Below are positions 2,700 through 63,745 of a stretch of DNA of 64,000 nt, piece after piece (position 1 is the first letter of the stretch; every line of letters starts with the position of its first letter). Source of the stretch: Somniosus microcephalus (taxonomy: Eukaryota). Location: contig CM126205.1 of assembly GCA_052327205.1 (NCBI GenBank), positions 301,196,001 through 301,260,000 of the forward strand, read 5' to 3'. A program made the translations under genes and the position numbers. Under the pieces are notes generated by a model. It was given only the letters and a program-made list of their open reading frames with translations. It did no database searches and was not told the origin of the DNA.

Positions 2700-3408
2700 A
2701 TCCCGATAACTTTTTTCCAACATGCAACGCCCCCATTTTTGAGTGTGAATGGGGCAGTAGCAGGCCAAAATGGTGGTGCACTACTTACCACCCCATTGTC
2801 GTCGACATCCGACCTGACGTGATTTTCGAGCAGGCCGAGAAACAGATGCGCATGCCGTCCTCCGCCCCACCCCTCGCCCGCCCAAAATAGGTGGGTGCCT
2901 ACTGAAATATGCCAAGAGGGCTCCTACACTCTCTGTAAGGCCCCAGTTCAATTTTGGGTGGAGCATGCACTCTGTGCGTTTCGTCCAGTGGATCTGAACG
3001 GCGAGTGGCCAAACCAGCAGGCCTTCAAGCGACTGTTGCAGGCCCCTCTGAAAGCAGGGAACAAAACCACTGTGGTGTTGATTTTTCTGGGGGTTGCTAA
3101 GAGGAGCATGAATGCTTCTCCTAGCCTGAGAAATATCTTCCCAATCGCTACCAGTCCCTCTGTGCCTTCCTTCCATCCACCCAACCCCAGCTTTGTGGCC
3201 AGGTTTCCATTACTGCACCCCCCCCACCCCATTCCCGATCGGTGAACTGTTTGTCAGTGCTCATTGAGCACTGGTAACTATCCAAAAGTATTGTAATGAG
3301 GCCCAAGCATGAAAATGATTCAGGCCTCTCACTGGTGCCATCGGGTGGGCAGTGCAGTCACTTCACCCACCGCCCGCCCAATGTGCACACCAAATGAAAA
3401 TGAGCCCC
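2700..3408. mobile_element. Probable degraded non-autonomous DNA transposon (Harbinger-like)
   Basis: GC/CpG-richer island ending in AAAATGAGCCCC, similar to other MITE termini here. Contains the palindrome CAGTGCTCATTGAGCACTG (3255-3273). Left terminus not seen. Confidence 0.4.
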
Positions 3409-19327: not shown

Positions 19328-20285
19328 GAGATAGATTTTGACCTTTAGGCGGCTGACTGGCGGAGCAGCGGAGAAGGCTCAGGCCTCGTTAACATTGCCT
19401 CAGGGCGCTGCGGACCTCGAGCGGGCACCCGCTGCAGCTCACCGGTTGGCCAGTTGAAGCCTGGTTCTATCGCTGAGCCGGGCTACAGGCAGGTAAGTCT
19501 GGGGAGGGGAGGGGTTGGGGGACAAGCCCAGGTTGGCAGTGGCCCACAGTATTCTTGATCTCATAAAAATTAAATCAAAAAAGATGCGGGGCCCTATTTT
19601 GAAATCGCCACTGGGACAAATGGGCAGACTGTGGGTGGCTCATGCGCTGTCCATTTGTACCTCAAAATTGCAATTGGGAACCTATGTACATCTAAAGGGC
19701 TTACCACTGCAAACAGGCGGGTGCTCTGGCCACCCATCAGAAGGCCCCTTCCAATAGGGTGGCGGTCAGCATGCCAACGTAAATGGGCTGGTAAGTGATC
19801 TGATGCTATTTTCACACCATCCCATTTTTTTAATTCGTTTATGGGACGTGGGCGTCGCTGGCAAGGCCAGCATTTATTGCCCATCCCTAGTTGCCCTTGA
19901 GAAGGTGATGGTGAGCCACCTTCTTGAACCGCTGCAGTCCGTGTGGTGAAGGTACTCCCACAGTGCTGTTAGGGAGTGAGTTCCAGGATTTTGACCCAGT
20001 GATGATGAAGGATCGGCGATATACTTCTAAGTCAGGATGGTATGTGACTTGGAGGGGAACCTGGAGGTGGTGGTGTTCCCATGCGCCTGCTGCCCTTGTC
20101 CTTCTAGGTGGAAGAGGTCGAGGGTTTGGGAGGTGCTGCCGAAGAAGCCTTGCTGAGTTGCTGCAGTGCATCTTGTGGATGGTACACACTGCAGCCACGG
20201 TACGCCGGTGGTGGAGGGAGTGAATGTTTAAGGTGGTGGATGGGGTGCCATTCAAGCCTAGTGGGCCAACATTAAAATCAGGCCC
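19328..20285. mobile_element. Probable Harbinger-like element interrupted by a LINE insertion
   Basis: GC-rich segment starting GAGATAGATTTT and ending AAAATCAGGCCC, flanking the LINE fragment. Confidence 0.4.
19825..20255 (-). mobile_element. 5'-truncated copy of the same LINE family as 57447-60638
   Basis: Encodes GTPSTTLNIHSLHHRRTVAAVCTIHKMHCSNSARLLRQHL...SKSWNSLPNS, nearly identical to the C-terminus at 60200-60570. Same 3' UTR and short A tail. Confidence 0.92.
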
Positions 20286-57446: not shown

Positions 57447-60400
57447 GGGAACGGTAGCGTAGTGGTTATGTTACTGGACTAGTGATCCAAAGGCCTGGAC
57501 TAATGATCCAGAGATATGAGTTCAAATCCCACCACGGCAGCTGGGGAATTTAAATTCAGTTAATTAAATTAAATAAATCTGGAATAAAAAGCTAGTATCA
57601 ATAATGGTAACCATGAAACTATCAGATTGTTGTAAGAAACCCAAACTGGTTCACTAATGTCCTTTAGAGAAGGAAATCTGCCATCCTTACCTGGTCTGGT
57701 CTATATGTGACTCCAGACTCAGCGATGTGGTTGACGCTTAACTGCCCTCTGACTAGCAAGCCACTCAGTTGTGAAAAATGGGACGGACCACCCGGCATCC
57801 ACCTCGGCACCGGCTACAGACACGACAGTGGCACACCCAGCCCAGTCATCCTTGCAAAGTCCTCCTCACCAACATCTGGGAACTTGTGCCAAAATTGAGT
57901 TGTCCCACAGACTATACTAGTCAAGCAAACAGCCTGACATAGTCATACTCACAGAATCATACCTTTCAGCCAAACTCCTCCATCACCATCCCTGGGTGTA
58001 TGTCCTGTCCAACTGGCAGGACAGACCCACCAGGGGTGGCGGCACAGTGGTATACAGTCGGGAAGGAGAGGCCCTGGGAGTCCTCAACATTGAATCCAAG
58101 CATGTGCAAGGAAACATCCTGCTGATTAGCACCTGCCGACCTTGCTCAGCTAATGAATCAGTACTCCTCCATGTTGAACACCACTTGGAAGAAGCACTGA
58201 GAGTACCAAGGGCACAGAATGTACTCTGCGTGGGGGACTTCAATGTTCACCACCAAGAATAGCTTGGTAGCACCACTGCCGGCCGAGTCCTGAAGGACAT
58301 AGCTGCCAATCTGGACCTGCGACAGGTGGTGAGAGAACCAACATGAGGGAAAAACCTACTTGACCTCGTCCTCACCAATCTACCTGTCGCAGATGCATCT
58401 GTCCATGACAGTATTGGTAGCAGTGACCACCGCACAGTCATTGTGGAGACGTCTTCACACTGAGGACACCCTCCATCGTGTTGTGTGGCACTACCACCAT
58501 GCTAAATGGGATAGGTTCAGAACTAGCAGCTCAAAACTGGGCATCCATGAGGCGCTGTGGGCCATCAGCAGCAGCAGAATTGTATTCCACCACAATCTGT
58601 AATCTCATGGTCCGGCATATCCCTCACTCTACCATTACCATGAAGCCAGGGAACCAACCCCGGTTCAATAAGGAGTGTAGAAGAGCATGCCAGGAGCAGC
58701 ACCAGGTGTACCTAAAAATGCAGTGCCAACCTGGGGAAGCTGCAACACAGGACTACATGCATGCTAAAAAGCGGAAGCAGCATGCTGTAGACAGGGCTAA
58801 GCGATCCGACAATCAACGGAGCAGATCAAAGCTCTGCAGTCCTGCCACATCCAGTCATGAATGGTGGTGGACCATTAAACAACTAACGGGAGGAGGCGGC
58901 TCCATGAATATACCCATCCTCAATGATGGTGGAGCCCAGCATGTGAGTGCAAAAGACAAAGCTGAAGCATCTTCAGCCAGAAGTGCTGAGTGGATGATCC
59001 ATATCGGTCTCCTCCTAAAGTCGCCACCACCACAGAAGCCAGTCTTCAGCCAATTCGATTCATTCCATGTGATATCAAGATATGGCTGAGCGCACTGGAT
59101 ACAGCAAAGACTGTGAGCCCCGACAACATCCCGGCTGGTGTGCTGAAGACTTGTGCTCCAGAACTAGCTGCGCTGTTCCAGTACAGCTATAACACTGGCA
59201 TCTATCCGACAATGTGGAAAACTGCCCAGGTATGTCTTGTCCACAAAAAGCAGGACAAATCCAATCCGGCCAATCAGCTAATTACTGCCCCATCAGTCTA
59301 CTCTCAATCATCAGCAAAGTGATGGAAGGTGTCATCGACAGTGCTATCAAGCAGCACTTACTCACCAATAACCTCCTCACTGATGTCCAGTTTGGGTTCC
59401 GCCAGGACCACTCGGCTCCAGAACTCATTACAACCTTGGTCCAAACATGGACAAAAGAGCTGAATTCCAAAGATGAGGTGAGAGTGACTGCCCTTGACAT
59501 CAAGGCAACATTTAACTGAGTGTGGCATCAAGGAGCCGTGGTAAAACTGAAGTCAATGGGAATCGGAGGGGGGAAACGCTCCATCGGCTGGAGTCATACC
59601 TAGCACAAAGAAAGATGGTTGTGGTAGTTGGAGATCAATCATCACAGGCCCAGGACATTGCTGCAGGAGTTCCTTAGGGCAGTGTCCTAGGCCCAACCAT
59701 CTTCAGCTGCATCATCAATGACCTTCCCTCCATCATACGGTCAGAAGTGGGGACATTCGCTGATGACTGCACAGTGTTCAGTGCCATTTGCAACTCCTCA
59801 GATAATGAAGCAGTCCATGCCCACATGCAACAAGACCTGAACAGCATTCAGGCTTGAGCTGATAAGTGGCAGGTAACATTCGCGCCACACAAGTGCCAGG
59901 CAATGACTATCTGCAACAAGCGTGCATCTAACCACCGTCACTTGACATTCAATAGTATTACCATCGCCGAATCCCCCACCATCAACATCCTGGGGATCAC
60001 CATTGACCAGAAACTTAACTGGACCAGCCACATAAATACTATGGCTGGGTATTCTGCGGCGAGTGTCTCACCTCCTGACTCCCCAAAGCCTTTCCACCAT
60101 CTACAAGGCACAAGTCAGGAGTGTGATGGAATACTCTCCACTTGCCTGGATGAGTGCAGCTCCAACAACACTCAAGAAGCTCGACACAACCAAGACAAAG
60201 TAGCCCGCTTGATTGGCACCCCATCCACCACCTTAAACATTCATTCCCATCACCATCGGCGTACCGTGGCTGCAGTGTGTACCATCTACAAGATGCACTG
60301 CAGCAACTCACCAAGGCTTCTTCGGCAGTACCTCCAAAACCCACGACCTCTACCACCTAGAAGGACAAGGGCAGCATGCACATGGGAACACCACCACCTC

Positions 60401-60638
60401 CAAGTTCCCCTCTAAGTCACACACCATCCTGACTTGGAAGTATATCGCCCTCCCTTAATCGTTGGTGGATCAAAATCCTGGAACTCCCTTCCTAACAGCA
60501 CTGTGGGAGTATCTTCGCCTCACGGACTGCAGCGGTTCAAGAAGGCAGCTCACCACCACCTTCTCAAGGGCAACTAGGCATGAGCAATAAATGCTGGCCT
60601 TGCCAGTGACACCCACGTCCCATGAATGAATAAAAAAA
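57447..60638 (+). mobile_element. Near full-length decayed non-LTR retrotransposon (CR1/Jockey-group APE-RT) with a tRNA-derived 5' head and no ORF1
   Basis: APE motifs KVLLTNIW, PDIVILTESY, RGGGTVVY, GDFNVHH, LDLVLTN and SDH. RT motifs YCPISLLSIISKVME, QFGFR, ALDIKATF, GVP*GSVLGP and FADD. Many frameshifts and stops. 3' end GAATGAATAAAAAAA. Confidence 0.92.
57455..57529 (+). promoter_or_regulatory. Type-2 RNA polymerase III internal promoter (A box and B box)
   Basis: A box TAGCGTAGTGG (57455-57465), starting 8 nt after the element start; B box GTTCAAATCC (57520-57529). Confidence 0.75.
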
Positions 60639-62990: not shown

Positions 62991-63051
62991 GCTAGGCTGA
63001 CACTCCCAGTGCGGTGCTGAGGGAGTGCTGCACTGTCGGAGGTGCCGTCTT
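62991..63051 (+). mobile_element. DeuSINE core (Deu-domain) fragment
   Basis: CTAGGCTGACACTCCCAGTGCGGTGCTGAGGGAGTGCTGCACTGTCGGAGGTGCCGTCTTT. Confidence 0.75.
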
Positions 63052-63745
63052 TTGTTGCACTCCCTCTATGGCAAGTATATCCTTCCTTAGGTAAGGAGAC
63101 CAAAACTGTACACAATACTCCAGGTGTGGTCTCACCTGGGCCCTATATAATTGCAGTAAGACATCTTTACTCTTATACTCAAATCCTCTTGTAATAAAGG
63201 ACAACATACCATTTGCTTTCCTAATTGCTTGCTGTACCTGCATGTTAACTTTCAGTGATTCGTGTACAAGGACATCCAGGTCCCTCTGAACACCAACATT
63301 TCCCAATCTCTCACCATTTAAAAAATACTTTGTTTTTCAATTTTTCCTACCAAAGTGGATAATTTCACATTTCTCCACGTTATATTCCATTTGCCATGTT
63401 CTTGCCCACTCACTTAGCCTGTCTATATCCCCTTGAAGCCTACTTGCATCCTCCTCACAACTTACATTCCCACCCAGCTTTGCATCACCAGCAAACTTGG
63501 ATATATTACATTTGGTCCCCTCATCCAAATCATTAATGTAGATTGTGAATAGCTGGGGCCCAAGCACTGATCCTTGCGGTACCCCACTAGCTACAGCCTG
63601 CCAACCCGAAAATGACCTGTTTATTCCTACTCTCTGTTTTCTGTCCGTTAACCAATCCTCAATCCATGCTAGTATATTACTCCCAATCCCATGAGCCCTA
63701 ATTTTGTTTAATGTGTGGCACCTTATCGAATGCCTTCTGAAAATC
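63052..63745 (-). mobile_element. CR1 LINE internal RT fragment
   Basis: GVPQGSVLGPQLFTIYINDLD, KFAGDAKL (degenerate FADD) and LYRAQVRPHLEYCVQFWSPY. Confidence 0.93.

Follow-up and report, generated by a model that had tools for sequence, protein, structure and literature searches.

As a working rule, LINEs use RNA polymerase (Pol) II, SINEs use Pol III, and an autonomous element cannot be served by Pol III. A locus in the window (the whole stretch of 64,000 nucleotides of Somniosus microcephalus DNA analysed here) raises the question of whether a protein-coding LINE can use Pol III instead. The initial annotation had described positions 57447-60638 (+) as a tRNA-headed, ORF1-less LINE that may be transcribed from end to end by Pol III. 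These positions are one copy of a Zenon LINE of the CR1 group, in a family whose complete unit is 3.3 kb. Judged from its sequence, the family is an ORF1-less Zenon LINE with a tRNA-type SINE head, and its master copies were probably transcribed by Pol III along their entire length from the A and B boxes of this head.

The copy begins with the tRNA-like head (57447..57540, +), where the family has a sharp 5' boundary. The head contains the A box TAGCGTAGTGG (57455..57465), which has the sequence expected of a type-2 Pol III promoter, and the B box GAGTTCAAATCC (57518..57529, annotated initially as 57520-57529). As a whole it is weakly tRNA-like: the Rfam tRNA model matches 57464-57540 with 15.3 bits (E 3.3, cut-off 29), ARAGORN makes no tRNA call on the head, and the head folds no better than shuffled sequences (z = -0.63 and -0.34). 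At 57470-57515, two short and nearly identical hairpins follow one another; between species the second hairpin varies with, by eye, apparently compensating changes. The SINE-like body (57541..57772, +) is defined by HMM and motif matches, and its 3' part resembles the Deu domain, making it a putative Deu body. The body HMM has one match in the window and none in 80 metagenome LINE loci. The junction (57773..57855, +), an A-rich linker with an Arg-rich lead-in to APE, opens into the single APE-RT reading frame (57856..60577, +), whose stop codon is placed at 60575-60577 by homology. In this frame Pfam recognizes parts of both domains, APE with E 3e-5 and RT with E 2e-6, which fall just short of the curated cut-offs. 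The short 3' UTR (60578..60630, +) has AATAAA at 60586-60591 in a stem-loop (folded from the same region of copy L097). One T and an A7 tail follow (60631..60638, +; A7 = 60632-60638), where other copies have T1 to T9. The A box, the APE and RT pieces, and the short A tail all lie where they were first reported. With 13 non-triplet indels relative to reference copy L106, the window copy is dead.

The family itself is already known. Zenon elements without ORF1 and with poly-A tails are described in five elasmobranchs (PMC13343379), and the present family shares with them a length of 3.2-3.3 kb, the single APE+RT ORF without ORF1, the poly-A tail, and the consensus start. In Table S2 of that paper, all seven elasmobranch Zenon rows (SquAca_Zenon-1/2/3 and CarCar, ScyCan, RhiTyp, and HypSab Zenon-1) share, by eye, the start of the present family within their first 400 nt: A box, B-box-like motif, body, and A-rich linker. 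Inspection by eye found no TTTT in these 400 nt. The B-box-like motif is complete in five of the seven rows and one base short in the other two. By eye, the A and B boxes are kept across the five species and the sequence between them has diverged. The first 400 nt of SquAca_Zenon-1 agree nearly letter for letter with the Somniosus family (by eye and by short motifs, unaligned). Among 1003 row starts of 400 nt, the B-box motifs match elasmobranch Zenon rows only, and the body motifs are found in those seven rows alone; no such head is seen by eye in the starts of the two hagfish and one coelacanth Zenon rows. The main text of PMC13343379 contains no mention of tRNA, pol III, polymerase III, Deu, or promoter, nor was a description found there of the tRNA-like head, of T-run avoidance, or of the lack of an AUG. 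It is the Pol III architecture that is apparently new. No report of a Pol III-transcribed autonomous LINE was found in the openly readable literature searched.

In a quick RT tree, one without named Zenon sequences, the element groups with a Euphydryas (butterfly) protein, P0006, and with P0001, P0002, L133, L135, and L136 (SH-aLRT 96). The closest named protein relatives are exonised pieces in shark genes, 69-83% identical. ORF pieces also occur within predicted shark host proteins (P0005, P0020, P0027, and P0033), as exonisation or as gene-model errors. Two related LINE proteins (P0003 and P0004) carry a 2A-like DVESNPGP motif ahead of APE.

The head forms the 5' end of this family and not of one locus. 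The family is abundant: querying the 6.45-Gb genome with the junction gave 7561 candidate copies, 40 of which were scored. In 25 of 39 junction-picked copies, the 5' start is at the first base of the head or within ~15 bases of it, and the flanks are unrelated. To avoid the bias of this set, copies were also picked by the ORF alone, in one set of 35 (5 of 40 matches had already been collected and were left out) and another of 20 (from 40 matches). The majority of these, 44 of 55 (30/35 and 14/20), run into the head, the rest are 5'-truncated, and none of the 55 has an alternative 5' end. The head-ORF junction is common to independent insertions, and no copy examined has an ORF1 or a different 5' UTR, in line with what the initial annotation had proposed. 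The flanking TSDs that it had proposed to look for were not found to be consistent in 15 and 22 full-length copies. Five copies with near-identical scores are clustered at 23.2-24.8 Mb of one contig (G000:C36), probably by segmental duplication.

Variants at head columns 20 and 25 are linked to variants at ORF columns 1924-2393, over distances of up to 2.4 kb; of 490 pairs, 15 remain significant after Bonferroni correction. Together with the shared junction and with shared ORF variants that are enriched in synonymous changes (see below), this indicates that the head and ORF have moved as one coding unit via several master lineages. A separate headless master was suggested by eight copies that start near the junction, and was rejected because their flanks are unrelated and the 5' ends of ORF-picked copies are spread through the head. 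When 19 headless copies were compared, no common upstream sequence was found except linker remnants and off-register repeats. The headless copies are ordinary truncation products, partly enriched by score ranking.

Among 38 copies picked by the head, 30 cross the LINE junction, seven consist of head and tail only (~400-460 bp), and one ends in a tandem repeat. The seven short copies (L096, L102, L110, L115, L119, L125, and L130) have seven different breakpoints, with the head ending at 307-347 and the tail starting at 3154-3209. They look like repeated internal deletions and not like the progeny of one SINE master, which fits the earlier suggestion that related short SINEs are internal-deletion derivatives of the LINE. 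Contigs of other sequencing runs contain further variants of the head-tail joint. The tRNA-related head with A and B boxes is a SINE trait of the entire family, while only the short derivatives are short and non-coding (the full unit has 3.3 kb and a selected ORF). In shark genomes, SacSINE1 is described as a tRNA head, a Deu body, and a tail shared with a LINE (PMC5499810). Judged by description, SacSINE1 and LmeSINE1 have the same build as the ~400-460 bp copies. These DeuSINEs are treated as non-autonomous, with L2-2_CM as the partner (PMC5499810), whereas here the head is on the LINE itself and the short forms differ in their breakpoints. In contigs of X15 and X17 (presumed RNA), the head is ~10-fold deeper than the ORF start, compared with ~3-fold in X1, a difference confounded by the short copies.

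Runs of T that stop Pol III are avoided on the sense strand. A count over 57447-60638 gave no run of four or more T (T4), seven T3, and 15 A4 or longer, so the earlier manual scan was correct. The element lies within 3383 nt free of T4, the longest such stretch in the window; the longest one without A4 is 889 nt. The 5'-truncated sister copy (19825..20257, -; T2 before the A tail) likewise has no T4 on its sense strand, as first noted. The absence of internal T4 from the non-template strand is a trait of type-2 Pol III units. It exceeds what base composition gives in mononucleotide shuffles (T4=0 in 0/1000, T3<=7 in 0/1000) but not in dinucleotide-preserving shuffles (P=0.139), under which T3<=7 has P=0.017. 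Per single sequence, the absence of T4 alone is modest evidence.

Across the family, majority letters over 131 copies (L030, a duplicate of L023, was left out of this and of the 3'-end and ORF-selection counts) contain no T4 and seven T3 or longer, so the consensus is T4-free as predicted. Runs of three or more number 7 for T, 37 for G, 51 for C, and 46 for A, with G at a frequency similar to that of T. T4 runs in individual copies are scattered, in 1-4 copies per site, as later mutation would give. Near-terminator motifs are also rare (5-of-6 T, 0.17 vs 1.98 expected; 4-of-5 T, 4.1 vs 13.8 expected), and this 3- to 12-fold depletion of weak terminators is not seen in the G and A analogues. 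Note that C4 runs are scarce as well (11 vs 20 expected, or 0.56 of expectation). In the ORF, TTT makes up 24% of Phe codons, compared with a pooled 41% of T in other two-fold families, and TTN codons follow a T-ending codon in 0 of 24 cases (~4.6 expected). Across copies, 22 T4 are found vs 110 expected, a pooled count that overstates significance because the copies descend from few masters and are not independent. Single shark ORFs compared with synonymous shuffles have 0 vs 1.9, 1 vs 3.5, and 0 vs 2.6 expected T4.

The other LINEs compared do not share this absence of T4. CR1-like pieces in the same loci are at or above the T4 expectation, as the initial annotation had noted for nearby CR1 copies. 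Twenty control stretches (~16 kb) hold 56 T4, 55 of them in the 18 that are CR1-like; the other two proved or appear to be of the Zenon family itself. A CR1-like RT fragment in the window (63043-63714, -) has three sense-strand T4 runs. In a panel of 62 other LINE ORFs of 400 or more aa, none is without T4, and the nearest relatives L133, L135, and L136 hold 4, 36, and 31. Ordered by T3 depletion, the three shark ORFs come first, third, and fourth of 65, in a panel in which most ORFs are T-richer than the shark Zenon ORF; L152, an unrelated ORF, matches the shark copies in its scarcity of T3, yet has two T4. No A/B box pair was found upstream of the 62 panel ORFs, and no tRNA gene in the 60 of 80 panel loci scanned. 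The tRNA-type promoter at the start and the avoidance of T-runs that stop Pol III together suggest that the family is likely transcribed by Pol III. The avoidance itself may reflect selection against Pol III terminators.

Purifying selection acted on the ORF. The ratio of synonymous to non-synonymous variants is 36:37 for shared variants and 443:1575 for singletons (p=5e-7), and no majority stop is found across 859 ORF codons. The APE-RT frame has no usable AUG upstream of APE; it is closed by a TAA 114 nt upstream of KVLL in most copies, and its first in-frame ATG is ~250 codons into the ORF. The ATG at 57778, which was initially taken as the start codon, is present and in frame, but it was made by deletions, 30 nt in all, that are private to the window copy, and it occurs in none of the 17 other aligned copies. 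Two further candidates were rejected. The first lies where the body ends, at family columns 299-307, which the window copy has lost near 57753: there, an ATG in Kozak context begins the mini-frame ATG-GCC-TAG. This ATG shares the frame of APE-RT, but in-frame TAG and TAA stops follow it in most copies. The TAG is changed to GAG or CAG in 31 of 109 copies. A second ATG, although conserved in the five species, belongs to the +1 frame, and 30 of 105 copies have ATA in its place. In other copies, it opens a 48-codon +1-frame ORF that overlaps the APE start (region matching window 57778-57920), and the variants in this overlapping region are mostly CpG. The linker length preserves the APE-RT frame in 41 of 49 copies, which a 3-nt repeat could also produce. 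Without an AUG to open the APE-RT frame, translation has to take an unusual route. The best guess is non-AUG initiation in the A-rich linker; other possible routes are a -1 frameshift after a start at the +1-frame ATG and read-through that begins at the upstream ATG.

At the 3' end of the family, the stem-loop (z = -2.99 in L097) holds AATAAA and is followed by a T-run of 1-9 and then the A tail. The initial annotation saw no Pol III terminator. This holds inside the element, but copies of the family often have a run of at least four T directly ahead of the A tail. Such a run was seen in 25 of 61 parsed 3' ends, the other 23 of the 84 ends being unparsed. In flanking DNA, T4 or longer precedes 12-19% of A5+/A7+ runs. 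T+ SINEs such as B2, Dip, and Ves similarly have AATAAA, a variable T-run terminator, and an A tail, and their Pol III RNA is polyadenylated; they differ in being short, non-coding, and mammalian (PMC8466645). Their T-runs are described as lengthening while A tails shorten after insertion (PMC8466645). This growth, the nearly constant T+A length at the family 3' ends, and the flanking background mean that the terminal T-run may be mutational. As a Pol III terminator it is suggestive only.

R2, an element without APE, offers a comparison in several respects. It has a single ORF, RNA made without a Pol II promoter, and internal-deletion derivatives (R2 SIDEs) (PMC3414825). Its proposed IRES-type initiation near a conserved stop is a precedent for a start without AUG, and its template jumps join tRNA or snRNA to 5' ends (PMC3414825). 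R2 differs in that it is site-specific and its RNA is cut from an rRNA co-transcript by a ribozyme (PMC3414825). Lepidopteran Zenon also has an internal-deletion derivative, the SIDE Persaeus, which is described as having no Pol III promoter (PMC6740152). Retroelements with Pol III promoters, as here, include the TRIMp3 elements Cassandra and Helenus, but these are LTR elements that do not code for protein and are at most 1.3 kb long (PMC10886601). In the same paper, Pol III is held to be too poorly processive for autonomous elements, an argument made for LTR elements.

A rival explanation does without Pol III. The LINE could be transcribed by Pol II in the ordinary way, its 5' UTR being a captured SINE (the head), with the T-poverty arising from avoidance of splice, polyadenylation, or decay signals, or of pairing with the element's own A tail. 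LINEs are usually Pol II transcripts (PMC10886601), AATAAA lies ~45 nt before the tail, a Kozak-context ATG is found at the end of the body, and the T4 absence of a single sequence is not significant given its dinucleotides. Nevertheless this explanation is unlikely. Against it, A and B boxes are kept in five species (by eye) while the sequence between them diverged, and 5' ends are sharp at the first base of the head. T4 occurs freely both in CR1-like LINEs of this genome and in the closest relatives that have no head, and the Kozak ATG runs into in-frame TAG and TAA in most copies.

A division of labour between two RNAs is somewhat less likely still. Pol III would make the template for reverse transcription, and the message for the protein would be a capped Pol II transcript or a read-through transcript, either of the same copy or of another one. 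The boxes and the T-run avoidance would then be explained without uncapped translation, and many internally deleted copies have indeed spread without an intact ORF. On the other hand, purifying selection on the ORF and T-run avoidance occur in the same lineages, which is most simply explained by a single RNA that serves as template and as message, and a capped RNA would likewise have no in-frame AUG before APE. That a LINE and a SINE were joined at this locus only, by insertion of the LINE into the SINE or by recombination, is next to impossible: nothing was found in its favour, and it is refuted because dozens of unlinked copies, as well as the consensus rows of five species (PMC13343379), have this junction.

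Transcription by Pol III remains the preferred reading. The stronger form, in which that same uncapped RNA is also translated, is tentative, at slightly below an even chance. In such a life cycle, the RNA would end at the T-run beside or beyond the 3' stem-loop and carry an A tail. The leader (the Deu-like body and A-rich linker) would act as a cap-independent, non-AUG initiation element, and translation of the uncapped RNA would most likely begin at a non-AUG codon within the linker. The protein would bind the 3' stem-loop and copy the RNA by target-primed reverse transcription. Any internally deleted copy keeping both ends would be a ready SINE at once. The head was probably gained once, before the shark-ray split, by a template jump of the RT onto a SINE RNA.

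Elasmobranch Zenon may accordingly be an autonomous, protein-coding element, recoded to be terminator-free, whose 3.3-kb uncapped Pol III RNA is both made and translated, which has been kept since the shark-ray split, and which has directly given rise to SacSINE1-type SINEs through recurrent internal deletions; this full account is nearly, but not quite, an even proposition. If true, a natural 3.3-kb Pol III-made mRNA in a vertebrate would break the rule by which Pol II serves LINEs and Pol III serves SINEs. It would also provide a test case for uncapped non-AUG translation and a concrete route to the birth of SINEs and their conserved bodies.
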